DNA of 64,000 bases from Amphiscolops sp. MND2022 (lineage: Eukaryota), in the NCBI GenBank assembly GCA_964187785.1, contig OZ076409.1, positions 10,542,001 to 10,606,000 of the forward strand, in the 5' to 3' direction. Within the stretch, counting starts at the first letter, position 1. Each line of letters opens with the position of its first letter. A program made the translations under genes and the position numbers. Shown in pieces: positions 1 through 26,977 of this stretch. Below the pieces are notes generated by a model. That model did not search any database. It was not told the origin of the DNA and saw nothing but the letters and a program-made list of their open reading frames with translations.

Positions 1-1253
1 TTTTCTATAGTACTCTTAGAAGAAACCCAACTTGACCATTGACGAACACTTCTACACTTAGAATAGCCCCCGGGCTATTATTTTCAGTTTATTCAGTAAA
101 TTTAACGATCTATAGTGAAAACCGCATGCAAAAATTCCCATTCAGTGCTGAGAAAAGTGAAAAAACGCACTGAATTTGATCAATTTTCCACAAAACCGGA
201 CTGTCTCTGAGCTAGGGTCGGGTCATCGATTCCTGAACCCTAGCCAAAAAGTGGTTGCATTTTCGTAACCACCACCAAAATTAACGTTAGTGCCGAAAAT
301 TTGGTGAACGTAACTTTCACCAAAATCGAGAAAAGTGCTCTAACGTTTCAACTTCAGAGGACTGTAAAACTACCGAAATAATCCAAAACTGAAGGACTGT
401 CGGTGCCTCGTACTTAACGGGCACATCTATTCGAGGGTTTATTCTAGTGTTACGAGTAGTGGGGCAACACGTAGATCCCATTTTTTCAACCCTACCACTT
501 TTTGAGGTGACCCTCTTAGCCAATTTGTGAAGAAAGTAGCCTAAGATTGTTTATTCTTTATGAGTGTTGTCCAAGTAAGGTCGAAACCTCAAATAAGCGT
601 CCGCGCTTTCTTTTGATGGTCTCACCGGCATTGTACACACTCATCGGCTGTAACTACAAAGTTTCGTGTCAATCCAACCGGTACTTGGTGAGAAAATAGA
701 AAAAACGTACCACTCAAAAAGCTGGGCATAGAGGGTGATTTTTCAAATTTTTCCCGAGTGATCCGAATACCTTAATTGAAAAACGAGGTTGAATTACAGT
801 TCATTTCTACCATTTGTACCAGATATTACGTTGTTTTGCAAATTTTGAGCCCGCCAGCTTTTCTCAGTAGAGCACAATCTCGAAATAAGCATGAAAATTG
901 ATGTATTTTGATGACTGAAGGTACCGAACGTCCGGATCAACCTAAATCTTGAAATAAAAACCCTAGCTTGGATTTAATTTTGCTATCGTGTAGTACACCT
1001 ACCACAAGGTCAGGTGGCCAATTTTCAAGTGTTTCCGACGATTAGACGTTGCGTTCGAGGGATCTTAGTCATTTCCAGAGAAATTTAAAAAACTCAAAAA
1101 TTGTCTAAAAACCCAATTGTTTGCGAATCAGCTACTCCGTAAGCCCCAAACGCACGGTTTCCGGCCCCACACCACGGTATCAACACGCTGTGTAAGTTTC
1201 ACGCCGGTACGACCCCTAGATCGATTTTTGACTTTTTCGAGACGTGCGAAATC

Positions 1254-4200
1254 ATGAAACCCATCAGTTTGCGTAACCTTTGGATTTCCATAACGAGAAC
1301 ATTAGGCCGCGCGAACACCCAGCGACGCTCTAATCATTCAAGAGGGGGGAGGAAGGACATCTCGCGATGCACTGAAACATCAAAGACACCAGATCCAACG
1401 GGGTGCGAGACAAACCTCAGTGCAATATCAGACTTGACCTCAGATCCCAAGGAGGAAGATTGGCCAACTGATGACAGTTTCATTATGGAACCCGATTTTT
1501 CAGACCCTATGTCAGACGACGCATCGGAGGAATATCAAGCCAAGCCGGTTGCCAAGACTACCGATGATATCGGAGGTTCAGCAGACGAAACAGGAAGTCA
1601 GGCGCACACGTCCAAATGGTTACAAGAACTCACCAAAGTAGCCGTCACGCCTTTCGGTACTGACGAAGCAGGAACATGGCCCAACTCCAACAGGACAAAC
1701 GCTGAGGAAGAAACTGAAATGAGTTGCTTGAATGCCACTGGACAACTCAAAGCTCCCAGCGTGGCCAGCGAGAGTACTGCGAACACGGCAGAGATATTGC
1801 AGCAAATGTCCTATGTCGGGGGTATGAACTATGCCAAGACACGTCTTCAAGAAGCTACAGCCCCCCGAGCATCTGGGAAGGGTAAGCAAGTACGGCCTCC
1901 AGCCTTACTAGCACAGACTGGCACTACAGGACCTCATGGCGACTCGCGCTCATCCTCACCTTCATCAAAAGCTGCATCTGCCCGATCTTCAGCATATCGA
2001 GCCGTACATGAAGCAGCGAAAGCACGCAAAGCTCTGTTAGATGCCCAGATAGGCGTGAAGCAAGCTGCTTCACAACTGTCTGAGCGTAAAGCAAGATGCG
2101 ACAGAGAGCATCAGTCAATAATGGAAGAGATAGAAGCCGTACAAACTGAACTGCGAACTTCGACTGAGCGACAAGCGCAAGGACATGAAATTCAGGCAGC
2201 TCGAATGGATGCCATGGGTTATCGAATGGCCGAAATAAAGGACATGGTGACCGAAAGAGAGGTACGCATGGAAGCTCAACTGCAAGAGGTATGTTCACAG
2301 ATACAAGCAATGGGCACCATGTTGAAAAATATCCAACCTCAACCCGCACCAGTAAGCAACACTATCAAAGAATTGCTGCAAGACACTAATATATCACTGC
2401 CAAAACCCATGAAAAGCGTCTCCCTCAAACCAAAAGAGAGTGTGACGATTTCGACAAACCCATCTGGCTCTAAACAACACTTGGCTAGGTACGCGCCCTT
2501 GCCACAAACTCTGGTCTCAAATGGAGAAGCTGCGTCAACATCGACGAAATTTATCCCATCTGCGGTATCAACAAAAAATATTCCACCCACAACCAAAACT
2601 CACAAGAAAGAACCAACATGCGAGGTGATAACTATCGACACTTCAAGCATGGGTATTAGCGACCTGCGAGAGCCCACACGCGCAAACATGCTAACCGAAG
2701 TCACTAGCACCTTCCAAACAGCAAATGCAACTTTGGGAGAATCAGCTGCAGAATTCCAAACCGCGAACGACGAATTACCCTCGGGCAACCCATGCGCTAG
2801 CAGTACTCGACGCCGAGAAGTGACTCTCCCCGAGAACACCGATGACTCTGTCAACTCAACGCGAGGCAGCAGCATCCCGCCACCAGCTATCAGCGAAGAA
2901 GCGCCTATATCACCAGAGCAACTCAGGTTTACCGAGGCAATATCTAAAGCCATGTCCAAGGAACTAGCACCGCTGATTGCTAATCGAGACCAAACTAGGG
3001 TGCGCCCTACGGTATACAAAGGCACTAAAGATGGTTCTGTCGATGGATGGCTCCCAGTGATGAAGCGATTTCTAGAAAGGGTGCATGCAAAATCCCCAAA
3101 AATCGACAGAGCCTGGGCTATCATCGACCACCTGGAAGGAGAGGCGAGAAATTATATTATCAACAAATCTGAACCTGAACGAGACGAGCCCGACAAGGTA
3201 TTCTCTCTCTTGGCCAGCAGATTTGGAACCGGTGGGAATCGCATGCACGTAAGGCAAACCTTCATGTCTCGTGTCCAACAGGAAAAAGAAGATTGGATGC
3301 AATTCCTGGACGCATTAGAAGGTCTGCGCACCCAAGGTTTCCCAGATGAGCCTATCACTACACGTCGTTATGAGATCCTGCAACGTTTTATAGATGGTGT
3401 CAATGATCCGACGCTGCGACAAGAGTTGGCCGTGGTATACGCTGCAGAGGCATATCTGACCGAACCACCAACTGTAGAATCCCTAAGGTTCACCACGAGA
3501 CAATTGCAACGGCATCGCCCAAACACGTCAAAACCTTACGACCCAAGGTATGCAATGAGATCGAGGCCTCATCCTTTCGTGCCAGGAAAATTGGTTCATC
3601 CAGCACCAGGCCTACCGCAAAACGTACTACCTCCTAACCAAGGACAACGAGAGGCTAAACCCCAAATGGCTCCACCAGCCCCTGCATCAGTAAAACAGGC
3701 TCCTGCACAACAGCAACCAGCGAGAGTGGTTCCCCAAGGAGCATGCTTCAACTGTGGGCTACCAGGTCACTTTGCAAGGGAATGCCCAAGTCGAGACCTA
3801 GCAAGGAAACCAGCGGCTCGCGCTGCACCTGAAGAGCGAGTAAACTTATGTGAGAATAATGTGGCCTCTGCATGTTCTGGCCCCGTATTCTGTGTAAATT
3901 GTGGCATGACTGAACACTCTGCATCACAATGCCAAAATGTTCCAGTACATGAGGATTTGGCCTACAGCCTCTGGGCTGAACAGCCACCTGCTTCTCAAAC
4001 AATGAGTGACAGTGAAATGGTACTTATGCTTCGTCCTGCTGAAACCGCTCATGTGGCAACGCCCCTTACCGTCACATGTGGCAAGATTCAAATCCAGACG
4101 AACCCGGAGCCAACTACTTTTGATCCCTCGGGACGCACTATCATGTCTGTCCGATTACTATTGGCGATTGAGAGGGAAACCCGCCCAGAACTCACCATAG

Positions 4201-7200
4201 ACGCCCTGATAGACGAGATAACCGCAAACGAGAATTGCCGACAATTGACCCTGCCCCAACCGGAAGAATGGCAGGTAAAAGGTGTCACTTCGACGTATCA
4301 TGCCTATTCTCCGATTCCAGTCAAAGTTTGCATAGATGGTGTTGACATGCGTTTTGGTGCCACTATCATTACTGACGCATTTCCTCCTGGAATCTGCTTG
4401 GGACCACAGGAGCTGCGCTGCTATAACATTGATGCTCAAGAACCAACTGGTGAAGCGAGAATCGATGAGCGTGCGTCGCTCGTAGTTTCATTCGTGGTTC
4501 CCGATGCTGCTCCCGTGCCATTACGTGGTCTGATAGACACTGGATCAGGAGTGTTCATCCTCACCTTCTCAGCCTACAATCGAGTCGCTGTGCGCACTGG
4601 GACACTCTTACGACCTTATGGTATTGACTTGTATGCCGCGAATGGGAAAACGATCAAAACTTTTGGTCTAGCGGAGAAAGTCAAGTTCCAATTGGGAGGC
4701 TACGAACTGGAAACTAACTTCGTGGTAGTTGACGACGCCATGGGAGTGGAAGACTTCCTCCTGGGCAGAAACTTCCTAAGAGCTTATCAAGTCTTGGTGG
4801 ATCTAACCGCGATGAAGGTCATTGTCCGAGCTCCGTCTGAACCAGTGTGGTACCATGCCCACACACAAGTAAGTAACGAATCACTCAATTCGTCGGTAGC
4901 GATTGCACAGGACGTAGTGTTGCAACCTTTTGAACGCGCAATACTACGCGCTAAACTGCTTGTAGACAACTTAGAACCTTTCATATTTCGAACCGTGCTA
5001 ATCAATTTCCAAACACCTAACCGAATGTTAAAAAACGCCATCTTTTTAGAGGACACCGTGGCGACCGTGGGGGAGACTGGCTTCCTTTACGTCAGTTTAG
5101 GAAATCTTACCAGCAACGTGCAGCGGATTAAAAAGGGCACCCTTTTAGGAACCGCGGTACCCGTAACGATGGTTCACAAAGCCATCCCCCAAATTGTCCC
5201 CGGACAATCAAGTGAAACTCAGCAGTCAAATGCAAATTATGTTTGTAAAGTTTACGAACAGATGAACCTTGACTCCTCTTCTGAATATAGTTCTTCATCT
5301 GAATTTGAGTTTTTGTCCTCTACCGAACCGTCAGAACTAGGCTTGTCCGAGCGCGAAGTAAAAAAACGAACCGATCCGGCGTTAATGGCTCCGATACCGG
5401 GCCCGGAAGCACAACTCGACGAAGTGCGCGGTTTGTGGGGATCGACCGCCAGCGACACGCTTAGTAAACTTTTGAATGAATTTGATGATTTGTTTATGAA
5501 ATTCAAAGCCGATATTGGTAAGTGTAAAATCGCCAAGCACCCGGTGGAAGTAGAGCCAGGGGCTGTACCCCACCGTGAAGGTGCAAGACGAATGTCGCCT
5601 GACAAGGCAGAACGTGCAAACCAAGAAGTCCGTGACCTGCTAGCTTTGGGAATGATACAGCCTTCTCTATCCCCTTGGGCGAGTGGAATCGTCATGGTCA
5701 AAAAGAAGAGTGGTGAATTGCGATTCTGTTGTGACTTTCGACCACTTAATGAAGTGACCATCAAAGACGCTTATCCCTTGCCACGTATCGATGAAAGTCT
5801 ATCCAGATTGGGCAAAGCCAAAATCTATACTAGTATTGATTTGGCGTGGGCATTCTGGCAAATTCCTGTCCGAAAAGCCGATCGTCAAAAGACTGCCTTC
5901 GCTTGTGAACTTGGGTTATTTGAGTGGCGGCGTATGCCTTTTGGTATGTGTAACGCATCAGCAACATTTCAACGGGCAATAGCGCGAGCGCTACAAAGAA
6001 TAGTGAACCGTGAAGGAAGTATGGTTATGGCCTACATCGATGACATTGCGATTGCTACCGAGACCATCGAGGATCACATGGGTAGACTACGCGAAGTATT
6101 CCAATGCCTGCGTGAGGCCGGGTTCAAAATGAGAGTCTCCAAGTGTGACTTCATGAAATCGGAGATCAAATATTTGGGCCGGGTAGTATCCGCAGATGGT
6201 ATCAAGCCAGATCCAAAAGCTGTCATCAAGCTGAAAGAATGGGATATCCCGCGAACCAAGACTGAATTGCAAAGTTTCTTGGGTTTTGCCAACTACTATC
6301 GAGATTTTATTCCGTGGCATGCAAAATTAGTTGCCCCTTTACACGCGATAACGGGAGGAGCCTCTTCATTTTTATGGGGGGAGGAGCAGCAGCGAGCCTT
6401 CAACAGCATCAAAGTGGCACTAATGGAAGCCACCGCTCTGGCGCAACCTGACACTGAAGGCGAATTTGTTCTCGACACGGATGCTAGTGGTGTAGCTATA
6501 TCGGGTATTCTGCACCAATGGCAAGGACCACCTGAGAGTCGCAAACTGCGACCGATTGTATTCGGAAGCAAAAAATTAACTGCTACGCAAGCAAAGTATG
6601 GAGCCCCAAAATTGGAAATGTATGCTGCATACTATTTCATCTTGAAAAACCACAGTTACCTCTGTCCACGAAAGTTCACACTGAGGGTAGATAATCAGGC
6701 CCTATCCTGGCTAAAAACATATTCGATGGATCAGGCGATTATCGGTCGATGGATTATGGCTCTTGAAAAATATCACTTCAGCATTGAGCATCGACCCAGA
6801 ACGCAACATCGAAATGCTGATGGTCTTAGCAAACGAACAAATGATTACAAAAAACACGAAAAGCAACTAAAAGGCTTACCCGCAATTGCAGACAAATGGG
6901 ATTTCCTGTCACAGGAGGAATATAACAAACTCCCGCTAGCCCCATGGTTCGACGTCCACGGACGCGTGATACCAAATCATCCAGAATTGCCTGCACACTT
7001 GCAGAGGTTGGGTAGCCAAAGTTCACCCGAGACCACAGTTGCCGCTCCCTCGCGAAAGAGCGGAGGAAGCAAACGAAATGCAACCATACGCGAGGAAGCC
7101 ATGAGAGCGCCTCTACCTACATTGCCAAAACCAGAATTGACACTGCCCGCCGAACTTTATCCAGAATATCCTGAGGATTGGTTAGAACTGACCGAGGAAT

Positions 7201-10200
7201 ATCAACGAGACTATCTACTCCCCACGCATGCTGCTAACGTACCATCAAGAACCACTTACCCACTAATGGAAAAGCAAGCAACTAGCACTGCACCAGAGCA
7301 CGTAAAACAAGCCGCGTTTGTGGTAAACAGCATATCAATGGAACTGCATGAACATGCTAACACAGTCCATGGATTGAAGGATCTACTACTAGCACAAAAC
7401 CGTGACGTCCATATATTGGCCATCAAGAAATTGGTAATGCAAGAATCAATAGATAATGACGTCTTTCCGGAAAATGTGCGCACCTTTGCCAAAAACTACC
7501 ACAAACAGAAGAAGAACCTCCTACTGATAAACGCCAACGGGATTTTGTGTGTAAAATACTCCAAAACTCAAAGAGCTTTGCATGAACGCCCCTGTATGAT
7601 AGTGATGCCACAATTGTATCAGCATGAGATACTATTCAAGGCCCACGACGCGATGGGACATCAGGGCATCGCGAAAGTCTTGGCCAGAATTCAAGAGCGC
7701 CACACTTGGCCAGGCATCCGCCGCACCATTGGACAATACGTCAGTCAATGTATCACTTGTCAACAAGTACGCGACAAGCCTGGTGATGTGCGCTTTCACT
7801 TGAAGAATATCCAAAGCGGTTATTTCAACGAGCTAGTCCAATATGACCACATGAAAATTTGTCCCTCTGATGATGGTAACACAGGGATATTGGTTATTAT
7901 CGATCATTTCTCTAAGCTCGCAGAAGCTGTGCCATGTAACCACGATGAGTACGATGCAGCAACCACTTCAAAGTTGTTGTTGCAGAAGTGGTTTGCCCGC
8001 CATGGAACGCCAACGAGGATGCAGTCAGACAATGCTCCCAATTTCACCGCGGCAGTATCTGCTGAGTTTATGAAAGCAGCCCAAGTGACCAAAGTAACCT
8101 CAACTGCTGGCCACCCCAGGACTCAAGGGTTGGTAGAACGACAAAACCGAACGCTACTCACCCTACTGCGTGTATTCTGCTCTAGACGAATGCGTGACTG
8201 GGATCAGTACCTAGATGAAGTTATGGGTGCATACAACTCCACACGTCATGCCACTACTGGATTTTCCCCGTATATGCTGACCAGAGGCATGGAAAAAGCT
8301 ATACCCCTGACTTTTTTGTATCCGGAATTTGCAACTCAGTCATTCGAATCACACGAAGCCTATGTGGAACATGTGCTGGCTCGACAACAAGAGATTCATG
8401 ACTTAGTCCGTCGCAACACGCATCAAGCCCAACAACGACAAAAATTGAAGTACGACAGAGCAATTCGTGCTAAGGCCTACGAAGTGGGCGAACCTGTTTG
8501 GGTATTCTGCCGATACATTCCTCAAAAGGGATCTCCCAAATTGATGAGAGCGTGGCGTGGTCCTCACAAGGTAGCACGAGTGCTACAAGAGGGACGTGTT
8601 TACATACTTGACACTGGGCAGAAAGTGCATTTCGAACGATTGAAACCGCATCATGGTGGTCCAACAGAATGGGCAGCTGTTCCTGCGCATAACGGCGAGG
8701 TTGCTATTATCATGGACCCTGATCCAGAACAATCCCATGAGGAGGTGAGAGACGATGCTTCACAACCTTCTTACCGTGCAGAGGAACCAATTTCGGAAGC
8801 CAGTGATGCCTCTTTGCCTTCTCGACAAAGACATTGGATGGACACACGGTTACGCACACACATGCGCGCAGGTGGCAGCCGCCTACATTATCAACAATTT
8901 GGCTACTCTTCGACTGAGTCTGACGATGAACGTTCTGATGTACTCCTATCGAGTGCTCAAACAAATCCTGACGAAAGTGTCATCTTGCCATCACAAGTAG
9001 ACGAGCCTGCGCCTATTCCCGAAATGCCAATATCACCACTACCTGCTATGGAGGCTCTATTTTCAGAGAATGAAGCAGTACCAGACGCATTAGATGTCGC
9101 CCCGAATCCTAATATCCACGTACCCACCGAAAGTGCCGCCACTTCTTTGACCGGTACATCCGCCCCATTTTTGACAAATCCATCTCTTACGGATATGTTG
9201 AGTAACTTTCCCATTTGGCCCCTAATCGATGACAATGACCTCAACCCAACCCTGGACGACGACGGTGCCGACACACCAACGACCAATAACGAAAAGGGAT
9301 CAATTCCCCCTGTAACAAATCCCATCAACAATGATGCAGCTACTACCACGAAACTCCCCAATGCTCCTAGAGGGCGTGGACCCCGGGGACGTCCGCCAGG
9401 CAGAGCAAGGCCGCGAGCCTCGCTACCACGTGGTCATCAACGGAGAGGTGCTATTAGAGGCGCTCGCAAAAGAGGCCGTCCTAGAGGTAGACCTCCTCGT
9501 ACAACGCACGCCAGACCTAACACTCCTACCCATATTCGTAACACTACATCAATGGACACTGACTCTTCTGCCCCTAGCGCGGCGGTTACCTCAGATCAGG
9601 CAGCACCACCAGAATCGACCAACGCTCATTATGGACTGCGACGCAATCGTATTCCCAGATATCGTTGCGGAACATGTGGCCTACGAAACTGCGAATGTAA
9701 CTACATGGTCCACGCGGGCTTCCCAATCAAATCCCAGGGAGTCCTACTAGCACGTGAACAGGAGAAATCACTTCCGAGCGGAATGGTTGACCGTTTGGTT
9801 ATTCGAGCCGAGAAAACCTACACTGGGCTACAACGCAGTGACACTCCATATCCCGTGGACTATATCCTATCCAAAATGAAAGATTCTACGATAGCAAAGG
9901 CTCCGTGCCCAAGGTTCAAGGAGTGGACCTATGATCTTGTTGGTTTGGAGTTCACCTTACCCATCACTGTTCCCCCTTTGCCTACAAATATTGCTTTTGG
10001 TCCTTTCAACTATGAGCGAGAGCCTATCCAAATGATACGCTGTATTCCTGCTGACCTCTTGTACGACAAATACAACGTCACAGCAAAACCAGGAGACGTT
10101 TATCAGCCTACAAGCAACTGGTGGCTACTAGTTACGGCCAAACAAGCATCCGACCTGGTTCATCCCACTAACTTGAACACCTGTCTGGAGAGTTTGCGGA

Positions 10201-11021
10201 CGATGGCCTCTCCTGATAGAATCACTTGTTTCCACACCATAGATCTATATCGTGGTAAAATTAAGTTTGAATGGTGGCTGGAACTTATTATAGCAGTTTT
10301 ATCAAATTTCTCACGAATCAGATTCCTGGACGAATGGACACACTCATTTCCTGGTCCTGTATCCCTCCAATCGGCCCTGCACGCACTGGATACATGGTCC
10401 AGGGCTAACATTGATAATCAATCATTGCCGCGATCTGTATGGCAAGATTTGGGCGCAATCAAGGGCCTCCTCCCGAATGCATGTGACGATGCTCTTTCCA
10501 AGGACCCTGGACGAGAGTTAGTGTACCATGGAGCCGCGAGACCTCAATTGGTTGACTATGTGCAGTATGCCAATACGGATTTCCTGCAGACTCCCCATCA
10601 TATCGTTTTATGTTGTCCCGCAAATCTGGAAACTAGTTCTGCCGCTCTTCGTTACGTCATTCGTGAGCATGGCGCAGATGCAATCTTTCAACTTCGACCG
10701 GAGGTTGGCAATATTGTAACGCTACCCACATCTTTGATAGACGGCCATCCTCAGACTATCCACCTTTTAATCACACGAGCTACACCTCGCTGCCCTATGC
10801 TCGCTGATATTCTCTTTGGATGTCTTGATCATTTGAAAACGTTACTCGAGCGCTTGGAGGCGATAGAAGTACACTTTGCCATCGTCGATCCTGAACGCCC
10901 AATACGTAATCTTTTTGATTTTTATGCCTGTTTGATGGACGTATTCGCCGACACCCCCCTGACCTTCGTTCTTCACGATCGCGTTTACGTATCTATTGCA
11001 AGCGTCGCTAGCTTTCCGTAA
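1254..11021 (+). CDS. Gag-Pol polyprotein (3255 aa) with long C-terminal extension
   Basis: Zn knuckles CFNCGLPGHFAREC and CVNCGMTEHSASQC. Protease LIDTGS (Asp codon 4536) and FLLGRNFL. RT RFCCDFRPLN, MPFG and YIDD (6033). RNase H LDTDASG. Integrase HDAMGH..CITC, QYDH/QSDNA/LVER and WRGPHKV. True start codon uncertain. Confidence 0.96.
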   Translation: MKPISLRNLWISITRTLGRANTQRRSNHSRGGRKDISRCTETSKTPDPTGCETNLSAISDLTSDPKEEDWPTDDSFIMEPDFSDPMSDDASEEYQAKPVAKTTDDIGGSADETGSQAHTSKWLQELTKVAVTPFGTDEAGTWPNSNRTNAEEETEMSCLNATGQLKAPSVASESTANTAEILQQMSYVGGMNYAKTRLQEATAPRASGKGKQVRPPALLAQTGTTGPHGDSRSSSPSSKAASARSSAYRAVHEAAKARKALLDAQIGVKQAASQLSERKARCDREHQSIMEEIEAVQTELRTSTERQAQGHEIQAARMDAMGYRMAEIKDMVTEREVRMEAQLQEVCSQIQAMGTMLKNIQPQPAPVSNTIKELLQDTNISLPKPMKSVSLKPKESVTISTNPSGSKQHLARYAPLPQTLVSNGEAASTSTKFIPSAVSTKNIPPTTKTHKKEPTCEVITIDTSSMGISDLREPTRANMLTEVTSTFQTANATLGESAAEFQTANDELPSGNPCASSTRRREVTLPENTDDSVNSTRGSSIPPPAISEEAPISPEQLRFTEAISKAMSKELAPLIANRDQTRVRPTVYKGTKDGSVDGWLPVMKRFLERVHAKSPKIDRAWAIIDHLEGEARNYIINKSEPERDEPDKVFSLLASRFGTGGNRMHVRQTFMSRVQQEKEDWMQFLDALEGLRTQGFPDEPITTRRYEILQRFIDGVNDPTLRQELAVVYAAEAYLTEPPTVESLRFTTRQLQRHRPNTSKPYDPRYAMRSRPHPFVPGKLVHPAPGLPQNVLPPNQGQREAKPQMAPPAPASVKQAPAQQQPARVVPQGACFNCGLPGHFARECPSRDLARKPAARAAPEERVNLCENNVASACSGPVFCVNCGMTEHSASQCQNVPVHEDLAYSLWAEQPPASQTMSDSEMVLMLRPAETAHVATPLTVTCGKIQIQTNPEPTTFDPSGRTIMSVRLLLAIERETRPELTIDALIDEITANENCRQLTLPQPEEWQVKGVTSTYHAYSPIPVKVCIDGVDMRFGATIITDAFPPGICLGPQELRCYNIDAQEPTGEARIDERASLVVSFVVPDAAPVPLRGLIDTGSGVFILTFSAYNRVAVRTGTLLRPYGIDLYAANGKTIKTFGLAEKVKFQLGGYELETNFVVVDDAMGVEDFLLGRNFLRAYQVLVDLTAMKVIVRAPSEPVWYHAHTQVSNESLNSSVAIAQDVVLQPFERAILRAKLLVDNLEPFIFRTVLINFQTPNRMLKNAIFLEDTVATVGETGFLYVSLGNLTSNVQRIKKGTLLGTAVPVTMVHKAIPQIVPGQSSETQQSNANYVCKVYEQMNLDSSSEYSSSSEFEFLSSTEPSELGLSEREVKKRTDPALMAPIPGPEAQLDEVRGLWGSTASDTLSKLLNEFDDLFMKFKADIGKCKIAKHPVEVEPGAVPHREGARRMSPDKAERANQEVRDLLALGMIQPSLSPWASGIVMVKKKSGELRFCCDFRPLNEVTIKDAYPLPRIDESLSRLGKAKIYTSIDLAWAFWQIPVRKADRQKTAFACELGLFEWRRMPFGMCNASATFQRAIARALQRIVNREGSMVMAYIDDIAIATETIEDHMGRLREVFQCLREAGFKMRVSKCDFMKSEIKYLGRVVSADGIKPDPKAVIKLKEWDIPRTKTELQSFLGFANYYRDFIPWHAKLVAPLHAITGGASSFLWGEEQQRAFNSIKVALMEATALAQPDTEGEFVLDTDASGVAISGILHQWQGPPESRKLRPIVFGSKKLTATQAKYGAPKLEMYAAYYFILKNHSYLCPRKFTLRVDNQALSWLKTYSMDQAIIGRWIMALEKYHFSIEHRPRTQHRNADGLSKRTNDYKKHEKQLKGLPAIADKWDFLSQEEYNKLPLAPWFDVHGRVIPNHPELPAHLQRLGSQSSPETTVAAPSRKSGGSKRNATIREEAMRAPLPTLPKPELTLPAELYPEYPEDWLELTEEYQRDYLLPTHAANVPSRTTYPLMEKQATSTAPEHVKQAAFVVNSISMELHEHANTVHGLKDLLLAQNRDVHILAIKKLVMQESIDNDVFPENVRTFAKNYHKQKKNLLLINANGILCVKYSKTQRALHERPCMIVMPQLYQHEILFKAHDAMGHQGIAKVLARIQERHTWPGIRRTIGQYVSQCITCQQVRDKPGDVRFHLKNIQSGYFNELVQYDHMKICPSDDGNTGILVIIDHFSKLAEAVPCNHDEYDAATTSKLLLQKWFARHGTPTRMQSDNAPNFTAAVSAEFMKAAQVTKVTSTAGHPRTQGLVERQNRTLLTLLRVFCSRRMRDWDQYLDEVMGAYNSTRHATTGFSPYMLTRGMEKAIPLTFLYPEFATQSFESHEAYVEHVLARQQEIHDLVRRNTHQAQQRQKLKYDRAIRAKAYEVGEPVWVFCRYIPQKGSPKLMRAWRGPHKVARVLQEGRVYILDTGQKVHFERLKPHHGGPTEWAAVPAHNGEVAIIMDPDPEQSHEEVRDDASQPSYRAEEPISEASDASLPSRQRHWMDTRLRTHMRAGGSRLHYQQFGYSSTESDDERSDVLLSSAQTNPDESVILPSQVDEPAPIPEMPISPLPAMEALFSENEAVPDALDVAPNPNIHVPTESAATSLTGTSAPFLTNPSLTDMLSNFPIWPLIDDNDLNPTLDDDGADTPTTNNEKGSIPPVTNPINNDAATTTKLPNAPRGRGPRGRPPGRARPRASLPRGHQRRGAIRGARKRGRPRGRPPRTTHARPNTPTHIRNTTSMDTDSSAPSAAVTSDQAAPPESTNAHYGLRRNRIPRYRCGTCGLRNCECNYMVHAGFPIKSQGVLLAREQEKSLPSGMVDRLVIRAEKTYTGLQRSDTPYPVDYILSKMKDSTIAKAPCPRFKEWTYDLVGLEFTLPITVPPLPTNIAFGPFNYEREPIQMIRCIPADLLYDKYNVTAKPGDVYQPTSNWWLLVTAKQASDLVHPTNLNTCLESLRTMASPDRITCFHTIDLYRGKIKFEWWLELIIAVLSNFSRIRFLDEWTHSFPGPVSLQSALHALDTWSRANIDNQSLPRSVWQDLGAIKGLLPNACDDALSKDPGRELVYHGAARPQLVDYVQYANTDFLQTPHHIVLCCPANLETSSAALRYVIREHGADAIFQLRPEVGNIVTLPTSLIDGHPQTIHLLITRATPRCPMLADILFGCLDHLKTLLERLEAIEVHFAIVDPERPIRNLFDFYACLMDVFADTPLTFVLHDRVYVSIASVASFP

Positions 11022-11250
11022 AACTTTCGTTTGTCCGCTTTCTTTTTTTTGTTTTTCGTTTTTTTTTGTCCGCTCGATTAAGTTTAGTGAATCGATACGA
11101 AGTTTATTTGAGACTATTACGTTATCTTTTTCTTTAATGTTAATGTGTAACATTCTATTACTTTCCCTGGTATTACCCTTAAATGACCTATGGTGTTACC
11201 CTACTATCAAGTGTGCTACAATCGACCTACGCTCTTTCAGAACTGTCGTC

Positions 11251-14200
11251 ATGAACCAAGATAATGATAGAAGCAACAACGTCCCGCCGAGGTCTACAGA
11301 CAACTCTCCTGCCTTGGGGCAACGCGTCTATGACACTGCGCGTGTCCAACGCACCCCACAAATTGCCTTTATTCGAGACAGACTCGACCAAGGTCTGTCG
11401 CCAGCAGCAGTGGCCGGGGTAGCAGCAATAATTGCCCAGATGGAATCACAATTGCAAGCCCCAATGCTAACGATATCAATTACCTCAGGGTTTCCTGGAT
11501 TTCAACGATCCATGACGTACCAAGATGGAGTGTGGCACGGCCATGATCTTACGCATCACTTCACAGATGATCGTGCGGCGATCTCGTATAGTCTTGCGAA
11601 TGGCGGAGTCCACCAGACTAGACCTTTACAGATCCCTTCTTGCCCGCCTCCACCTCCACCGCCACCTCCTGTACCAACACCACAAGCAGTAGTGCGCGCG
11701 CGCACTCCTGCTCCTATGGTGCCTAGCCTGCCCAATCAATCTATGGCGGAGCAAGCAGTCATTTCAGCGCTACAAGCAGTGGCTGCCAATCCCAATTACG
11801 ATGACTTCATGCGATCCATGGAGCAGTGTTGGCCAGAGCTACGTCGAATTGCTCTGCCCACTGTCACTATTCGTAACGACAATGCGACTTCAACTGAAAC
11901 ACGTCAAGGTGTCATCACTATTCCCCACATCAATCCTCAGTCTGAACAGCCAGGACACTCTCGCACCGTGACTGTGGAACGCAGTCGTTCGCCTTCCCGC
12001 TCTTCTCAAAAGGGGGGAGGAGAGAGCCGCCCTGCCTCCAGAAAGCGCAACGACCCCTCCCCAACAAAGAAGACTCAACAACCATTGACTGCCCGTGACA
12101 GCCCCTCGAGCAAGCCACCACCCGACAAAAAGATTTCCAACGAGAAGGCCACAACCTCCAAAGCGCCAGACCAAACGAAGTCAAAAGTGTCGGAAGCATG
12201 CGTGCTTCCCTCACCCCAATCACAACCGGACGTGACAGGCGAGCAACAAGGACTGCCGCAACCACCATCCACGCAGTCTACAACACGCGAGTCGCTGGCT
12301 CAACGAGCGACTCCTAAGCCCTCCACGTCAGGACAGCCACAATCGGAGCAAACTGTGGGTTATCAAGGCACCCCTGTATCCCAGCGAACTGTCAAGGACA
12401 TAATGGGTGATTACCCAGGGTTGAAAGTGACCAACAGTGGTCCAACTGGAACCCCACTCCGGAAACAGGCGATTCAACATCCAACTAAGAGGACCCTTAC
12501 GAAACAGCCGACGTACCTGAGTCCCATGCAGAACACAAAGGGCACATTGGTCACCAAGGATTCCCGACGTATCTGGGAATCGGCAGTTATAGTATCGCCC
12601 GAATGGCTATTTGAGAAAAACATGTGTCCTCCAAATGACGAAGAGCACGCGAAACTGAAGAAGGCAAATGTACCCGTATTCATGAATCGTCCAATCCGCC
12701 CAGACCACACTCCTACCAATGAGCCGCCATGGCTAGGGAAGGCAATGAATATGCTGCCAAACGTGGATGACAATTACCTAGATGCCCTCAACGTTGACCT
12801 TCGTGGGCAATTCGCCGATCGATATTTCCTCAACGCTGGAGAGACCTTTGAGATCAACCCACGGTACGCCCGTGATCTCGAAGCCCAGCTACCAATGCCA
12901 AAAGAAAGGTTGCAGCGTGCGCGCTTCGCCTTACTTATTGACTCAACATTCCTCAAGAATGTCCCCATCGACAACGTGTTGTCAGACGTGATGGTTTTTA
13001 CTCTACCGCTGTCACGTATTCCCGAGATGGCCGAAGTGTTGGTCACCATGTTTGACCCTGAGATGACAGGAACCTTCAAAGAGCCACCTCCACGTAGAGT
13101 GATCATCAGCAACGTTTTCGATCACATGGCCTGTGAAGGACTAATGGCCCAGATCGCGAACGTTGAGATTATGAATCCAAGTCCGGCTCAGCGAACAACG
13201 GTACGCAATGCAGCATTGAACATGGCCCGAGCCATGGAGAAAGCCCAAAACATCTTGAAAGACAAACTCAAGGTGCCAGCCCTGTTCGTGACACCCCCAG
13301 GTTTTTGCCAATGGCCCCCCGCCTTGCAGAGATTCATATACATGGTGACAGAAGTTTGCAAGTGCAGAGAAATAGACTTTGCGATCTGCGCGCCCAATAT
13401 GCGGATTAGCTCCAATGACTTTCGCCCCTCCTGGCTGTCCTACATGGGGTACATTGCCTCAGTGTCTAAAGTGCTACAGTCAGTAGAGAAAACAGGGAAC
13501 GCGCAGCTGACAATCGACGATGCCATTTACTTTGATCACGGCACTCGCATGGGCTTGTTGGTGTTCAACAAGGACGGAGAAAGGCGAGTCCCAGAGCCCA
13601 GTACGGCCGAATGCGAGGCAATCCGCCTGAATAACTGGATAGAGCGCGCGCGCTCATCCGGTGGAAAGACTTGTATCAAAACCGATCTTGCAGAAGTCAC
13701 TGCCACAATGAGCAAAGTCCCCAGCGACCGAGAAGTAGAACGAGCCATCCCGCGAGTTCAATTTGCCAAGGACCTCACAATCGATCAATTATCAGTGGGA
13801 ATGAAGTACATTGCTGCTAAATTGACGAGCGAAACTCAGGCTGAAATCCAAGCCTTCAGCAGCACCTACGACGCCTGGTACCAGCGGCTACAAACTACCA
13901 CCGTAGCAGACATTGCAAAAGAGCTTGGGATGTCAACCGACCAGTTTGCCATCTGTTTGGGATTGGGTTGGAGTCCCGATGTTATTCGAGTCGAGTTCGA
14001 TTTAGAGGAGAGTTGGTTGATCGAAATCAGCGAGATTATCGGTACCGTGCAGGTGAACGAACTCTTTGCACTGATGCTCACTTTCGGGCAGAAACGCTTT
14101 GTAGCTGGCCCAATGATGATATTGACTGACCTGGTTACCGAGTGTAATCTGGAATGGCTATTTTCATATCTGGTGATTGCACGAGGGAATATCTCAGGTC

Positions 14201-15618
14201 TAACCGCCCTAGCCAAGCTGTTGCAACGGAAAGACGCTCAGGATTATCCCGCTCACCTGGAGCGTATGACAACTTCATTGTATCACTGGATGTATTGCAG
14301 TCTGGTCTTTGCCTCAGGACTCTTCGTGGGGGTGGATAAGCACCAACCGTTATATGATGGACGTCAGCTAGTGACCGAGGTAGCTGGATTTTTGACACCC
14401 AACCAGCTGGCAGATTTCACTTTGGCTGAAGTCGAAGATCTTATACCGGTGTTAGCACCCGTGCTAACTCCGATATTTGGCCCAACCGGGATACTCCGAT
14501 ACCCCACCAAGCCTCTGAGACTGGCCTCGGAGACGTTAACGGTATCCATCCTAACTTATCTGAAGAACGTAAAACCACACAACTATCAACAGATGCTTGA
14601 ACGTGGGCTGTTTCTGCTAGTACCACGTATGTATACCACAATAAAGAATGAGACACAGCAAGACGAAAACCTGGCCGGTATTCTCAAAGCCCGAACAAAG
14701 AAGGCGTGCCCTTTACCTCGCGAATACGGCCCGGTGAATTGGTATAATTCTCCCCTAGACCACCTCGGAATCCCACAGCGATTCAATTGGAGTTTCGCAC
14801 ACCTCAGGAAGTACGTGACCGAGTGTGTGCAAACCATGGGCGGTCACACGAATCAGGAGTACAATTTCCAAATGATTAAGCTTCCAGCCAGGTACTGGCG
14901 AGGACCCATCGGTTATATCCGGGCCAAGCCAATCAGTATGGTCGAGAAGGGCTTTGATGAGCAGTATGCCTATCGCGACCACTACAAACTTGGCGTGTGG
15001 ATGTCAAGAACCCTGGAGGAGCGCCAAGGACGCCTAAGAGGTTTAATCATCCCCCCACTGACAATGCCTGTTTGGAATCCAGAGGCGAGGGTTACTATGG
15101 GAAGCGACATGCCAGCGGAGACTTGCTACCACGTCATGGAATTGCTAAGTGATCCCCTCGGACCCGAATGGGAAGCCTCTAGGCAAATCATAGAGCATGC
15201 GAATAGGGACAACTGGTCCAGAGCCTGCGGGCTCTGGGGCCGACCTGATCTACGCCCGAAACTCAGTGCGAAACAGAAACGACCCATTGCCACCCGCAAT
15301 AGACCGCTGGATCTACCGCACTTGTTTAATGCTAGTAGACTGGATGTACAGATCCCAATCTCCACATCAACCACAAGTTCTGCCAATGTTAGCGGCTCAG
15401 CCAATGCAGCGCAAGAACATTCGCCAGAAGCATCAACTCCGGTAGCCGCAGAAAATGGCCCTGGTGGCTCAAACACGGCTCCTAGGACCCATGAAACTGC
15501 CAGCGCAGAACCAAAGCCAGTCCTGCGAGGAGGAAATACGCGAAGAGGATCTCTGTCTGAACTGCAACCAAAGGCAGACGTTTCCCCCAGAGCGCGTCAC
15601 TCCTCTGCCACCCAGTAA
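11251..15618 (+). CDS. Element A ORF2 (~1455 aa from first plausible ATG): Pro/Ser-rich N-terminus, SGNH-like domain, unknown C-terminal region
   Basis: Open for 4.6 kb from 10996. ATG at 11251 follows a CTCTTTCAG acceptor-like site. The 3' part is also open in copy 2 with only a few substitutions. Confidence 0.85.
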   Translation: MNQDNDRSNNVPPRSTDNSPALGQRVYDTARVQRTPQIAFIRDRLDQGLSPAAVAGVAAIIAQMESQLQAPMLTISITSGFPGFQRSMTYQDGVWHGHDLTHHFTDDRAAISYSLANGGVHQTRPLQIPSCPPPPPPPPPVPTPQAVVRARTPAPMVPSLPNQSMAEQAVISALQAVAANPNYDDFMRSMEQCWPELRRIALPTVTIRNDNATSTETRQGVITIPHINPQSEQPGHSRTVTVERSRSPSRSSQKGGGESRPASRKRNDPSPTKKTQQPLTARDSPSSKPPPDKKISNEKATTSKAPDQTKSKVSEACVLPSPQSQPDVTGEQQGLPQPPSTQSTTRESLAQRATPKPSTSGQPQSEQTVGYQGTPVSQRTVKDIMGDYPGLKVTNSGPTGTPLRKQAIQHPTKRTLTKQPTYLSPMQNTKGTLVTKDSRRIWESAVIVSPEWLFEKNMCPPNDEEHAKLKKANVPVFMNRPIRPDHTPTNEPPWLGKAMNMLPNVDDNYLDALNVDLRGQFADRYFLNAGETFEINPRYARDLEAQLPMPKERLQRARFALLIDSTFLKNVPIDNVLSDVMVFTLPLSRIPEMAEVLVTMFDPEMTGTFKEPPPRRVIISNVFDHMACEGLMAQIANVEIMNPSPAQRTTVRNAALNMARAMEKAQNILKDKLKVPALFVTPPGFCQWPPALQRFIYMVTEVCKCREIDFAICAPNMRISSNDFRPSWLSYMGYIASVSKVLQSVEKTGNAQLTIDDAIYFDHGTRMGLLVFNKDGERRVPEPSTAECEAIRLNNWIERARSSGGKTCIKTDLAEVTATMSKVPSDREVERAIPRVQFAKDLTIDQLSVGMKYIAAKLTSETQAEIQAFSSTYDAWYQRLQTTTVADIAKELGMSTDQFAICLGLGWSPDVIRVEFDLEESWLIEISEIIGTVQVNELFALMLTFGQKRFVAGPMMILTDLVTECNLEWLFSYLVIARGNISGLTALAKLLQRKDAQDYPAHLERMTTSLYHWMYCSLVFASGLFVGVDKHQPLYDGRQLVTEVAGFLTPNQLADFTLAEVEDLIPVLAPVLTPIFGPTGILRYPTKPLRLASETLTVSILTYLKNVKPHNYQQMLERGLFLLVPRMYTTIKNETQQDENLAGILKARTKKACPLPREYGPVNWYNSPLDHLGIPQRFNWSFAHLRKYVTECVQTMGGHTNQEYNFQMIKLPARYWRGPIGYIRAKPISMVEKGFDEQYAYRDHYKLGVWMSRTLEERQGRLRGLIIPPLTMPVWNPEARVTMGSDMPAETCYHVMELLSDPLGPEWEASRQIIEHANRDNWSRACGLWGRPDLRPKLSAKQKRPIATRNRPLDLPHLFNASRLDVQIPISTSTTSSANVSGSANAAQEHSPEASTPVAAENGPGGSNTAPRTHETASAEPKPVLRGGNTRRGSLSELQPKADVSPRARHSSATQ

Positions 15619-16628: not shown

Positions 16629-17362
16629 TGTAGCGACTACCTATCGAGTGCACGATTTCGAAAATTTCGATGAAAATTTCGTTCAAGGGACTATATCTCC
16701 TCTACTAAAGAGTCATATTCCGCCAGACGGCAGCGTGTCTTTATTCAAGTACCTGTCCACGGAATTGAAGAGGATTTGAACAAGAGACTCGAAAGAGACC
16801 CCAACCGAACGAGAAGATTGCAGAAAAACACGGCCACTATCAGAAAAAGACTCAAATTTCTGCCAAAACGGACTGAACTTTGTTCTAACCAGTGCTTTCT
16901 TCAGCGAAGCGTTACAAGACGCTGTGATTACCAAAAATGAGTCAATTAGCTTGACCAAGCATCCGTGCTTGTGTCCCCGGCTAATTGCTGCCTCAAAAGT
17001 GCTAATTATGTAGTAATTTTCGTATTTTCTTGTTGTAACAGCTCGTGAGCTACTCATTTCAATCTCCTGTGTAACTTCGATAAAACTTGATTTTTCCTTT
17101 CCACCACTTGCATTTTTTAAAGGCTGTCTAAGTGTTGATTTCGAAGAAAAAGCGTAATGCGCACTACTGATAGCAATTACAGACTGGATCAGGCCGGCGA
17201 GCACCTCACAAGAAGCGGAATCCTCCTCTGACGGGACAGTTTTTACCCGAAAGAGGCAAAATGAGCTCATGGTCATGGGCGCCTGTCCCGGGCAAATACC
17301 CATATCATGTGTTCCTCTAACTCTTATGGTTACGGCGACAATGGTGAGAGCTTGTCGTCACA
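16629..17362 (+). repeat. 3' LTR of element A (734 bp)
   Basis: Starts TGTAGCGAC, ends GTCGTCACA (imperfect terminal inverted repeat), preceded by a PPT-like GGGGAGTGTA. Same length as the reverse copy at 60209..60942. Confidence 0.9.
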
Positions 17363-18844: not shown

Positions 18845-19772
18845 AATCGAAAAAAAAACTAAAATGGAAATTTGAATGGAGGGAAGTTGAGATAATGCTT
18901 GTTGGTTAAAAACTCCGAAGGAAATTCAAAAAGTGTACACTCAAGTGCTTACCATTGTTGAAACTGCTTGAACTTTTTGCATGTACTTTAATGTTGCCGG
19001 CAACTTTTATTATGATTTTTTGAAACTCCTACGGAAACTCATGCGAAAATATTTTCTAGGTTTCTAAATTTTCTAGGTTTTATAAAAAACTACCCTGCAT
19101 GCAGGCCTGCAGCATGTAAAAAGTTCCTGCAGTTTCAACTAAGGTAGTTGAGTATCATAAATGACTCAAATAAAATGAGCCTTGATGATTATAATTGGCT
19201 TCTTGTATGGGCTTGTAAATATAACTTGTGCATTACATAAAACAGAGAACAGTTGGTTGAGAATTTATGCTTCCTCATAAGATAATCAGCAAAGCATTTA
19301 GTTGAGTGCACTCAACTAAATGCTTTGCTGATTATCTTATGAGGAAGCATAAATTCTCAACCAACTGTTCTCTGTTTTATGTAATGCACAAGTTATATTT
19401 ACAAGCCCATACAAGAAGCCAATTATAATCATCAAGGCTCATTTTATTTGAGTCATTTATGATACTCAACTACCTTAGTTGAAACTGCAGGAACTTTTTA
19501 CATGCTGCAGGCCTGCATGCAGGGTAGTTTTTTATAAAACCTAGAAAATTCAGAAACCTAGAAAATATTTTCGCATGAGTTTCCGTAGGAGTTTCAAAAA
19601 ATCATAATAAAAGTTGCCGGCAACATTAAAGTACATGCAAAAAGTTCAAGCAGTTTCAACAATGGTAAGCACTTGAGTGTACACTTTTTGAATTTCCTTC
19701 GGAGTTTTTAACCAACAAGCATTATCTCAACTTCCCTCCATTCAAATTTCCATTTTAGTTTTTTTTTCGATT
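18845..19772. repeat. 928-bp near-perfect palindrome, no spacer, centred on GTGCAC (19306-19311)
   Basis: 464-bp arms are reverse complements with one mismatch noticed. Each arm contains a small MITE (~18952-19144 and mirror). Confidence 0.95.
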
Positions 19773-26499: not shown

Positions 26500-26977
26500 T
26501 GGCGCCTCTATAGCCTGTTGACCATGGTCTGGGGCAATGTGGGATTTCTCTAGTGATAAGCACGGGCTGTTTTCGCATTCTTGTTAGCTTGGCAGACGTG
26601 TAGCGGGTTCCGCGTCCACACAGTGGCCTGTACTTCGGACTGTCCTGCAAGCTGATTCCGTGGGACTCTTCTATCTCATTTATATGGGGCTCCATTAAAT
26701 CATCTAGACGATCAATTTTTGCAGGTGGTTCGTTTGACGAGTGTTGGCGGTTAGTTAAATCTTGTGGGACCGGTGCATTTTGAAACGGGGGTAACTGCCG
26801 CGGGGTATCCGGTTCTTCATAATATCTCTCTTCCGAATTTTCAGCGGTTTGTTCTTCCACTGTAAATACTTCTCCGGGGCTTGACGTTCCGAATGTTATT
26901 TTTCTAGGGGAGCCTATTGTCTCAAACGTTGAGGCAGATATATTTGATAGGTTGAGTTCATTGATGGAAGACATCAA
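26402..26977 (-). CDS. Hypothetical 191-aa disordered ORF running from element B interior into the 3' LTR
   Basis: Open frame with Ser/Pro/Glu-rich composition; no recognisable domain. Confidence 0.35.
   Translation of the reverse strand: MMSSINELNLSNISASTFETIGSPRKITFGTSSPGEVFTVEEQTAENSEERYYEEPDTPRQLPPFQNAPVPQDLTNRQHSSNEPPAKIDRLDDLMEPHINEIEESHGISLQDSPKYRPLCGRGTRYTSAKLTRMRKQPVLITREIPHCPRPWSTGYRGAMSRPAPCRVFPVAGEYRNLQEDEDMAEPHKIK

Follow-up and report, generated by a model that had tools for sequence, protein, structure and literature searches.

The window, by which we mean the whole stretch of 64,000 nucleotides analysed here, carries an LTR retrotransposon whose polyprotein runs on far beyond its integrase, which raises the question of what this C-terminal tail is and what it may do for the element. 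A sequence-only reading had recognized in it two tandem macrodomains of the TARG1/DarG type, probably non-catalytic, located where chromoviruses carry a chromodomain and acting as an ADP-ribose or chromatin reader or as a decoy. Some other retroelement proteins also bear annotated macro domains. Against RNA viruses and phages, ADP-ribosylation is established as a defence; against LTR retrotransposons, to our knowledge, little is known about its action.

Layout of the element

ORF1 is free of stops over 3292 codons and carries gag-pol together with two predicted macro-fold units at its C-terminus. Its Pfam domains follow the order gag-PR-RT-RH-IN of a Ty3/Gypsy LTR retrotransposon:

1143–11021, + strand: ORF1, a single gag-pol polyprotein, measured between stops, with its first Met at 1254
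3741–3791, + strand: gag CCHC zinc knuckle (Pfam PF00098)
4518–4781, + strand: aspartyl protease (Pfam PF13975, under that family's curated cut-off)
5697–6773, + strand: reverse transcriptase and RNase H (Pfam PF00078, PF17919, PF17917)
7608–8117, + strand: integrase zinc finger and core (Pfam PF17921, PF00665)
8553–8573, + strand: GPY/F-like motif 3' of the integrase core (from sequence)

The last of these, which we take to be a GPY/F-like motif, lies in a region (8400–8700) over which Pfam gave no relevant match. The chromodomain PF00385 was not found in ORF1 by Pfam, the C-terminal folds being macro.

Predicted macro folds of the tandem units

~9978–10334, + strand: macro unit 1, a shortened TARG1-type fold (structure model, profiles)
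10335–10517, + strand: inter-unit segment, one strand and two helices predicted
~10518–10982, + strand: macro unit 2, a full-length TARG1-type fold (structure model, profiles)

Structure modelling predicts two macro-fold units at the end of ORF1, with TARG1 (OARD1, C6orf130; 2LGR, 2L8R, 4J5Q/R/S) as their closest fold. In the AF2 model of 9864–11018, the best match was human TARG1 2LGR, placed over unit 2 (Z 15.4, rmsd 3.5, 143 aligned), followed by DarG (5M3I, Z 14.7; 7OMU, Z 12.4), BT1257 (2AFC, Z 12.4) and Poa1p (6LFQ, Z 10.1), all of the same macro subclass. In the model without unit 2 (9630–10418, mean pLDDT 81), TARG1 was also the best match of unit 1 (Z 11.0, rmsd 2.7, 116 aligned), with BT1257 2AFC and DarG 5M3I within 1 Z of it and so tied, and Foldseek gave TARG1 at all of ranks 1–8; the top rows of both units' fold searches were macrodomains. 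These models bear out the tandem TARG1/DarG-type folds in one reading frame with integrase that had been read from the letters, and all 11 motifs quoted for them are real and in frame within ORF1 (10035–10307 for unit 1 and 10566–10955 for unit 2).

The profile match to macro families that had been looked for was obtained in part: of 177,635 PDB sequences, TARG1 ranked first with the family profiles, at weak E-values of 0.26, 0.016 and 0.039, and was the best sequence-profile match for unit 2, but the Pfam Macro family PF01661 was reached at E ≤ 1 neither by the window ORF nor by any of the 34 alignment members. The domain of a related element forms a bridge, with E 2e-26 to TARG1 and E 1e-9 to the unit-2 profile. 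A profile from unit 1 alone gave no TARG1 match, its formin matches at E ≥ 0.23 being due to chance. The profile–profile alignment of unit 1 with unit 2 scored 37.1 against a maximum of 25.1 in 100 column shuffles, and the two single sequences aligned no better than chance, with 303 of 2000 shuffles scoring as high. Searches with the ORF1 C-terminus gave no Pfam match at E ≤ 1, no macrodomain in the PDB by phmmer (one unrelated match, E 1.5) and, in the ESM Atlas, a best score of 0.81, with a Macro-bearing cluster at 0.80, under the lead threshold; for the window protein, NCBIfam returned nothing usable and no DarG match. Degenerate forms being invisible to Pfam, surveys of transposon domains would have missed them.

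Probable remodelling of the ligand pocket

In a residue register taken from profile alignments, not from superposed coordinates, and with counts that are of sequences, many of them close kin, unit 2 retains the adenine-site Asp that it has in common with TARG1 (10578; 214 of 229 covering relatives), carries Arg at the Lys84 position (10776; 194 of 201, with Lys in 1), reads Asp/Glu/Arg/Pro in place of Gly121/Gly123/Leu124/Asp125 at 10887–10901 (Asp for Gly121 in 167 of 173 and Glu for Gly123 in 161 of 171) and has Ser and Ala for the loop 1 glycines Gly41/Gly43 (Ala in 211 of 226), while unit 1 has Ala/Ser at the Lys84 position (221 of 233), a loop 2 reading D-x-Y-R-G and no loop-1/helix segment. 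The window ORF does not contain the TARG1 pattern TKx(30,35)Px[IL]GxGxD as published (PMC6397177), which was found in 24 of 515 comparison proteins, all from the P0403–P0405 clusters; Lys84 and Asp125 are required by the TARG1 mechanism (PMC6397177). With Lys84 and the glycine loops lost and the TARG1 catalytic signature failing in both units, both are therefore probably non-catalytic, as had been surmised. Canonical ADP-ribose binding is predicted, from the same residues, to be lost in the pair because of the Glu at Gly123 in unit 2 and the missing loop-1/helix segment in unit 1, and the proposed role as an ADP-ribose reader is weakened by these two changes; in human TARG1, according to the accessible part of PMC5928194, G123E abolishes ADP-ribose binding and catalysis, and RNA binding survives. 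Compared with TARG1, the element units thus lack Lys84, the GxGxD loop and Asp125, and the pair, a tandem fused with the polyprotein of a retrotransposon, is not basic; compared with DarG, BT1257 and Poa1p, it lacks the catalytic Lys and the glycine loop and stands in a eukaryotic retroelement setting.

The pocket replacements hold across families at 42–44% unit-2 identity and also in the distant fragments P0197 and P0214, the latter keeping Lys84 alongside the new loop. As identity in the linker drops to 29–38% between families, we take these sites to be under selection. Because the replacement residues are near-invariant across families only 42% identical, the pocket appears to have been remodelled and not to be decaying. 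The view that a captured TARG1 gene decays without function would accommodate macro units conserved less than every core enzyme and a tail absent from some relatives, but with the frame open and the pocket residues near-invariant across families at 30–55% identity it is already largely refuted, and we give it next to no weight. The invariant Asp, Glu and Arg might instead have become an active site of another kind, with an ADP-ribose-like molecule or a nucleotide as substrate, since a pair of invariant acids and a pair of invariant Arg lie clustered where the old active site was and P0214 combines Lys84 with the new loop; the GxG phosphate-binding loop and the Asp125 needed by the TARG1 mechanism are absent, however, and the fold searches gave no known macro enzyme with such a loop, and we regard a remodelled enzyme as quite unlikely.

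Unit 2 has a pI of 5.2–6.4, against 8.7–9.5 for intact-looking copies, and the net charge of both units lies between −1 and −8 (window, P0003 and P0004); such neutral to acidic units fit a protein ligand better than RNA or DNA. Non-specific binding of RNA or DNA by the macro folds, as by SARS SUD or by TARG1 through its RNA-binding surface, is suggested by the RNA binding that TARG1 G123E retains (PMC5928194, accessible part) and by the G-quadruplexes that SUD binds, but SUD does so through lysines (PMC2674928, accessible part), and the neutral or acidic units here, set against basic intact-looking copies, make it very unlikely.

Relatives with intact-looking and degenerate copies

In an RT-RNase H tree of 34 chosen rows with a midpoint root, the element falls into a 24-row Gypsy clade (100/100 support) that leaves out P0383, P0386 and P0401 and is separate from chromodomain-bearing elements. 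A TARG1-type domain ends 13 of the 24 sampled polyproteins, in forms running from copies with the full TARG1 signature through to degenerate single and tandem ones. The finding of such a Gypsy clade is new here; in a literature search that covered few subscription papers, no account of a TARG1-type domain in a Gypsy element came up. The relative P0403 passes the Pfam Macro family PF01661 (23.4 bits, cut-off 22) and P0405 scores 21, and P0424 passes the leave-out profile test (1e-18). Unit 1 of P0394 is weakly supported, with E 1.6e-4 from a profile that included P0394's own unit 2. Two further tails, of P0416 and of P0422, had a macro-like appearance on visual inspection but failed the leave-out profile test (E 0.85 and 0.38) and were not counted.

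Conservation across related elements, which had been proposed as a check, is found close to the window element: 52 of 59 long ORFs (RT identity at least 74%, integrase core present) extend through both units, with about 50 from one family. The sister lineage P0385 and P0395 (RT ~60%) has no macro domain in the predicted ORF, and the tail is therefore dispensable for some relatives. The macro-domain tree is poorly resolved, with long branches, and neither orders the events nor tells whether the domain was captured once, long ago, or was taken up anew at a later time in P0403–P0405. Among JGI contigs, 0 of 172 metagenome and 0 of 93 viral pattern matches were confirmed as related loci.

The main rival to the reading that we prefer below is a counter-defence decoy, which would continue the ancestral task of opposing host ADP-ribosylation, now without catalysis, by binding a PARP/ART, a reader or ADP-ribosylated residues in a rebuilt pocket, with Arg side chains standing in for the glycine backbone and integrase, Gag or cDNA ends being shielded. 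It is consistent with the intact-looking TARG1 copies in relatives of the same clade, with the adenine-site Asp and two invariant Arg near the pocket of unit 2, and with the divergence of unit 2, which at 44% identity to P0003, compared with 72% for gag and 91% for RT, changes far faster than either, like conflict proteins. L1 is silenced by ADP-ribosylation via SIRT6/KAP1 (PMC4695847, accessible part), and macrodomain activity has repeatedly been lost in host–virus conflict (PMC10221186, accessible part). Nevertheless, the Glu at Gly123 is the very change that blocks ADP-ribose binding in TARG1 (PMC5928194, accessible part), loop 1 is lost from unit 1, and a working eraser would presumably serve better against such a defence than an inactive one, leaving the decoy somewhat unlikely.

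The tail between integrase and the macro units

8703–9302, + strand: acidic Pro/Ser-rich linker, poorly conserved (net charge per 40 aa)
9366–9500, + strand: basic Arg/Gly-rich, AT-hook-like stretch with three GRP cores (at 9387, 9474 and 9486)
9666–9698, + strand: CxxCxxxxCxC cysteine knuckle, predicted metal site (low model confidence)
9783–9971, + strand: conserved beta-rich subdomain 5' of unit 1 (AF2 model of 9630–10418)

Across the wider linker (8670–9602), between-family identity is 29–38%, and net charge amounts to +20 across 9303–9542. A GRP-type motif and the cysteine knuckle are each kept in the tails of 52 of 52 long relatives and are missing from the tandem relative P0394 and every single-domain relative; despite GRP cores in a basic context, Pfam AT_hook gave no match for 9330–9560. 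The beta subdomain comprises strands at model residues 52–64, 96–99 and 105–114 (block pLDDT 67–92 over residues 51–120) and was barely covered by the fold search. The sequence-only reading had not included the basic stretch, the knuckle, this subdomain, which is joined to unit 1, or the wider clade in which some TARG1 copies look intact. Its comparison with the position of a chromodomain holds only loosely: unit 1 begins ~475 residues past the GPY/F-like motif and the element belongs to a separate clade. At that distance, the element's protease might detach the pair.

Released by the protease or still attached, the pair could alternatively serve as a scaffold for the particle or the ORF2 product, unrelated to targeting. 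The long acidic linker separating integrase from the module, the conserved extra strands flanking both units and the giant ORF2 directly following would suit such an assembly role, but it leaves unexplained both the invariant residues exactly at the former ligand pocket and the DNA-binding-like basic stretch, and we consider it unlikely.

A possible tether for the integration complex

We favour, at somewhat short of an even chance, a pseudo-enzyme adaptor by which the integration complex would be tethered to a chromatin partner of the host: the pair is likely a docking module and not an enzyme, because its catalytic residues are gone, whereas in related elements a single copy that looks intact is retained. 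In the scheme that we infer, an ancestor of the clade would have acquired an ADP-ribose eraser of the TARG1 type as an addition to the end of its pol. The domain would then have duplicated in this lineage, the loop 2 glycines changing to D-x-E/Y-R and Lys84 to Arg or Ala/Ser, whereby hydrolysis and canonical ADP-ribose binding would have ended, and the new invariant residues would make up a binding site for a protein ligand. Finally, the basic GRP stretch and the Cys knuckle may hold DNA while the pair docks on its partner, so that integration would be biased, as by the chromodomain of chromoviruses. The retained adenine-site Asp of unit 2, for its part, would fit a kept nucleotide pocket and counts against the tether, as do the distance of the pair from the GPY/F-like motif, the missing AT_hook match, the lack of GRP motifs and knuckle in P0394 and the single-domain relatives, and the sister lineage that does without a macro domain.

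Several known systems offer partial parallels. Gypsy elements with fused chromatin readers are a precedent (10.1101/2021.11.30.470311, accessible part). Chromoviruses such as MAGGY likewise have an extra reader-type domain at the integrase C-terminus, and a targeting role is proposed here by analogy, whereas our element has no chromodomain, belongs to another clade and bears its module much further from the integrase core. SARS SUD-N/SUD-M resembles the pair as tandem macro folds in the polyprotein of a selfish element that have lost ADP-ribose binding, as demonstrated for SUD and predicted here, and gained other ligands (PMC2674928, accessible part); its structural similarity is lower (Z 6.6–7.4), and the two are not homologous by any close route. 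Fish epsilon-like endogenous retroviruses also exemplify capture of a macro domain by an LTR retroelement, as additional ORFs (PMC4977317, accessible part, citing Basta et al. 2009); going by that description, the domain here is set apart as TARG1-type, C-terminally fused, duplicated, degenerate and of a Gypsy clade.

A clade with TARG1 domains from intact-looking to disarmed and doubled is a natural series for testing whether retrotransposon proteins or cDNA are ADP-ribosylated by their hosts, and it could show how an eraser turns into a module for binding. Should the pair indeed tether integrase, it would be a new type of targeting device beside chromodomains and PHD fingers.

ORF2, LTR and insertion sites

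10963–15618, + strand: ORF2, with 1551 codons between stops; it begins inside the end of ORF1, in a different frame
16629–17362, + strand: 3' LTR (TG...CA), preceded by a purine-rich tract; end set by the divergence of two copies
60209–64000, − strand: second, recent copy of the element, with the 3' part of ORF2 and the LTR, cut by the window end

ORF2 had no family match in Pfam, NCBIfam, the PDB or the ESM Atlas. A spacing seen by eye in it resembled what we take to be the SGNH motifs; in BLAST against the P0388 GDSL tail the best E was 0.94, Pfam, the PDB and the Atlas gave no support, and the SGNH-like reading was rejected. No 5' LTR or PBS was found within the window. The second copy is identical to the first in 3779 columns over 3793 bases.

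In its widest form, our reading would be that an undescribed Gypsy clade took TARG1 onto its integrase end and repeatedly made it a pseudo-enzyme, that the duplicated, disarmed pair with its DNA-gripping basic arm is a new kind of targeting device sending insertions to one particular foldback repeat family, and that the intact sister copies reflect ADP-ribosylation of retrotransposon proteins or cDNA by animal hosts; taken as a whole, this is improbable. The insertion-site lead itself comes from n=2 and a motif picked after inspection: both copies in the window end either inside one particular foldback-repeat motif or 57 bp away from it, and only 2.6% of the host-side DNA lies within 70 bp of that motif.

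Results

The sequence-only reading had placed a tandem pair of TARG1/DarG-like macrodomains at the end of a retrotransposon polyprotein, and all 11 of its 11 peptide motifs were recovered in frame and in place. Both units lie inside ORF1, confirming their fusion to the integrase polyprotein, and the features concerned are as follows.

1143-11021, + strand: ORF1, 3292 codons, stop-free, bearing the macro pair at its end
9666-9698: CxxCxxxxCxC knuckle
9978-10334: unit 1
10518-10982: unit 2
10963-15618: ORF2, 1551 codons, after ORF1
about 16629-17362: 3' LTR, downstream of ORF2 and preceded by a purine tract
60209-64000: copy 2, inverted, cut by the window end

The Pfam order in ORF1 (CCHC knuckle, aspartyl protease, RT, RNase H, integrase zinc finger, integrase core) identifies it, at the sequence level, as a Ty3/Gypsy gag-pol. 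No 5' LTR was found within the 64-kb window; copy 2 matches the first copy in 3779 columns over 3793 bases, which argues for recent movement of the element family. ORF2 combines a hydrophobic stretch at the N-terminus with a long region rich in Pro, Ser and Thr and a large part that is globular; it has no match in Pfam, NCBIfam, PDB or Atlas, and an SGNH-like spacing is seen in it by eye only. Separately, a sister element (P0388, RT 60%) bears a GDSL/SGNH lipase-like domain (PF13472, residues 1328-1469, under the cut-off at E 8.8e-7), which sits in frame behind a partial integrase, in place of a macro tail. Another Gypsy-like element, unrelated to that of ORF1 (RT 28% identical), occupies 24238-39483 on the minus strand; its ORFs are interrupted, and long direct repeats spaced by about 13.6 kb flank it. 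A macro-profile search of it gave no match.

The expected macro profile match was obtained in part: the single C-terminal sequence hit no Pfam family at E ≤ 1 and no macrodomain in the PDB, but family profiles reached TARG1, weakly. Homologue searches brought up relatives at 41-98% identity, 52 of them long and 157 short (among the matches listed, all from ENA), and, in a further search, 385 representatives at E ≤ 0.001, 150 of them listed. Against 177,635 PDB sequences, a 34-member profile matched only TARG1 (five hits, E 0.26-0.36), and other family profiles matched it at E 0.016 and 0.039; a profile of unit 1 only failed to reach TARG1 in the PDB search, which counts against the assignment. 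Structural models bear out a predicted TARG1-like macro fold for both units. Two alpha/beta units are seen in an AF2 model covering the final 385 residues (mean pLDDT 64.6); of these, unit 2 best matches TARG1 (Z 15.4, rmsd 3.5, 143 aligned), followed by DarG (Z 14.7) and DarTG and BT1257 (Z 12.4). In a second model without unit 2 (mean pLDDT 81), for which the Foldseek check proposed earlier ranked TARG1 first to eighth, unit 1 also best matches TARG1 (Z 11.0, rmsd 2.7, 116 aligned), ahead of BT1257 (Z 10.3) and DarG (Z 10.1). We therefore regard the macro pair on the polyprotein as real and its fold as predicted. Aligned as single sequences, the units score no better than shuffles; their trimmed profiles align with a score of 37.1 versus a maximum of 25.1 in 100 column shuffles, consistent with an origin by duplication.

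TARG1 uses Lys84 as nucleophile, Asp125 for hydrolysis and a GxG phosphate-binding loop (available text of PMC6397177). Residues were counted in the 343 of 514 stored proteins that match the window C-terminus, each site over the proteins covering it, with the residue register taken from profile alignments; the counts are of sequences, many of them close kin. The losses of the catalytic Lys and glycine loops noted from the sequence hold across the family: unit 2 has Arg at Lys84 (194/201), Ala at Gly43 (211/226), Asp at Gly121 (167/173), Glu at Gly123 (161/171), Arg at Leu124 (165/170) and Ser/Pro at Asp125 (159/168), with the adenine-site Asp retained (214/229), and unit 1 has Ala/Ser at Lys84 (221/233), lacks some 20 residues, among them loop 1 with its helix, and carries Asp (230/242), Tyr (216/242), Arg (223/242) and Gly (228/241) in loop 2. 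The TARG1 substitutions G43E, I44E and G123E are described as abolishing ADP-ribose binding and catalysis, with RNA binding retained in G123E and G43E (available text of PMC5928194). Given its Glu at the Gly123 position, unit 2 is, by sequence, a natural counterpart of the binding-dead G123E mutant, and catalysis and canonical ADP-ribose binding have very probably both been lost. Both units are neutral to acidic, and nucleic-acid binding by the pair is highly improbable.

The pocket residues are the same in three families with just 42-44% unit-2 identity, and they recur in two fragments further removed, P0197 and P0214, of which P0214 retains the Lys. The pocket is thus rebuilt and conserved, not decaying; that the pair is a relic is scarcely credible, and that it is a remodelled enzyme is quite unlikely. 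Identities to families P0003 and P0004, respectively, are 91 and 82% for RT, 89 and 69% for integrase, 72 and 55% for the gag region, 64 and 42% for unit 1, 44 and 42% for unit 2, and 38 and 31% for the linker, indicating that the pair changes faster than gag, yet its pocket residues stay.

Past the GPY/F-like motif (8553), the tail consists of an acidic linker, an Arg/Gly-rich basic stretch with three GRP cores, in which Pfam calls no AT-hook, the Cys knuckle and a beta subdomain, followed by units 1 and 2 with a segment of 60 residues between them. The GRP motifs and knuckle are present in 52/52 long relatives, themselves found through the macro region. The beta-rich subdomain (9783-9971) is conserved and confidently predicted, with no fold match among the matches listed. 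A merely structural role of the pair within this tail is unlikely.

A wider RT-RNase H search gave 279 matches, 120 of them listed, and reached more distant elements. Among the matches listed, 52 of 59 long ORFs with at least 74% RT identity and an integrase core continue through both units, and seven stop earlier. A tree built from 34 selected rows places the window element and its relatives in a 24-row clade (support 100/100) apart from three chromodomain-bearing elements; a C-terminal TARG1-type domain is confirmed in 13 rows, uncertain in two and absent from the predicted ORF in nine, five of which end early. A profile from unit 2 of the tandem family alone matches the C-termini of P0394, P0403, P0404, P0405, P0409, P0413, P0427 and P0428 (E 3e-22 to 3e-7), and a leave-out profile, which supported neither P0416 nor P0422 as macro-bearing, adds P0424 (1e-18). 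P0394 appears tandem, its first unit weakly supported. The last 200-210 residues of P0403-P0405 form a single domain with the complete TARG1 catalytic pattern and Tyr at the adenine-site Asp position; one member of the cluster matches TARG1 at E 2e-26, and NCBIfam gives a DarG match (E 1.8e-11), making these proteins candidate active ADP-ribose erasers on a retrotransposon. Further single-domain states are found in P0409, P0427, P0428, P0413 and P0424: the P0409 group has Arg at Lys84 with loop 1 glycines retained, P0424 keeps Lys and Asp with Ala at Gly123, and P0413 is fully derived. TARG1 may have been captured by the clade a single time or recaptured in P0403-P0405.

Discussion

Macrodomain capture by retroelements and reader domains on integrase are already known; macro-domain ORFs are reported in fish endogenous retroviruses (available text of PMC4977317, citing Basta 2009), and macrodomain activity has been lost recurrently in macroPARPs and alphaviruses (extract of PMC10221186). 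For TARG1-type domains on Gypsy integrases, no description was found in the literature searched, whose coverage is incomplete. The likest system in its working is SARS SUD, a tandem macro pair not binding ADP-ribose (available text of PMC2674928), a loss predicted for the window pair; the chromodomain of chromoviruses offers a positional likeness (extract of 10.1101/2021.11.30.470311). The window pair descends from TARG1 but fails its defining catalytic features and is not classed as a member. What heightens the interest of the finding is that states across the clade run from an intact-looking eraser to a disarmed tandem.

The retained adenine-site Asp, the fast evolution of the pair and the relatives with intact-looking domains would also suit a decoy against ADP-ribosylation, which we consider somewhat unlikely. 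We tentatively favour a pseudo-enzyme adaptor, in which the disarmed pair would dock the integration complex on a putative host chromatin partner, the basic GRP stretch and Cys knuckle assisting the tethering, because of its position behind integrase, its DNA-binding-like neighbours, its non-basic surface and the foldback-junction lead. Against tethering count the distance of the module from the GPY/F-like motif (about 475 residues) and its possible cleavage, the absence of the GRP stretch and knuckle from P0394 and the single-domain relatives, and the existence of a sister lineage without the tail.

The foldback-junction lead comprises two junctions, with a motif picked post hoc after inspection. 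Both element copies terminate within or close by a repeat of a single foldback family: the LTR of copy 2 (junction 60209; motif 59948-59961) joins within the conserved 14-mer CATGTAAAAAGTTC, judging by the opposite arm of the palindrome, and that of copy 1 (LTR end 17362) lies 57 bp from a motif copy at 17420. All eight motif matches in the window fall within 2.3 kb of the two junctions. Of the host-side DNA (42.8 kb), just 2.6% lies within 70 bp of a match. To the same foldback family belongs a near-perfect 928-bp palindrome at 18845-19772, with 464-bp arms and no spacer.
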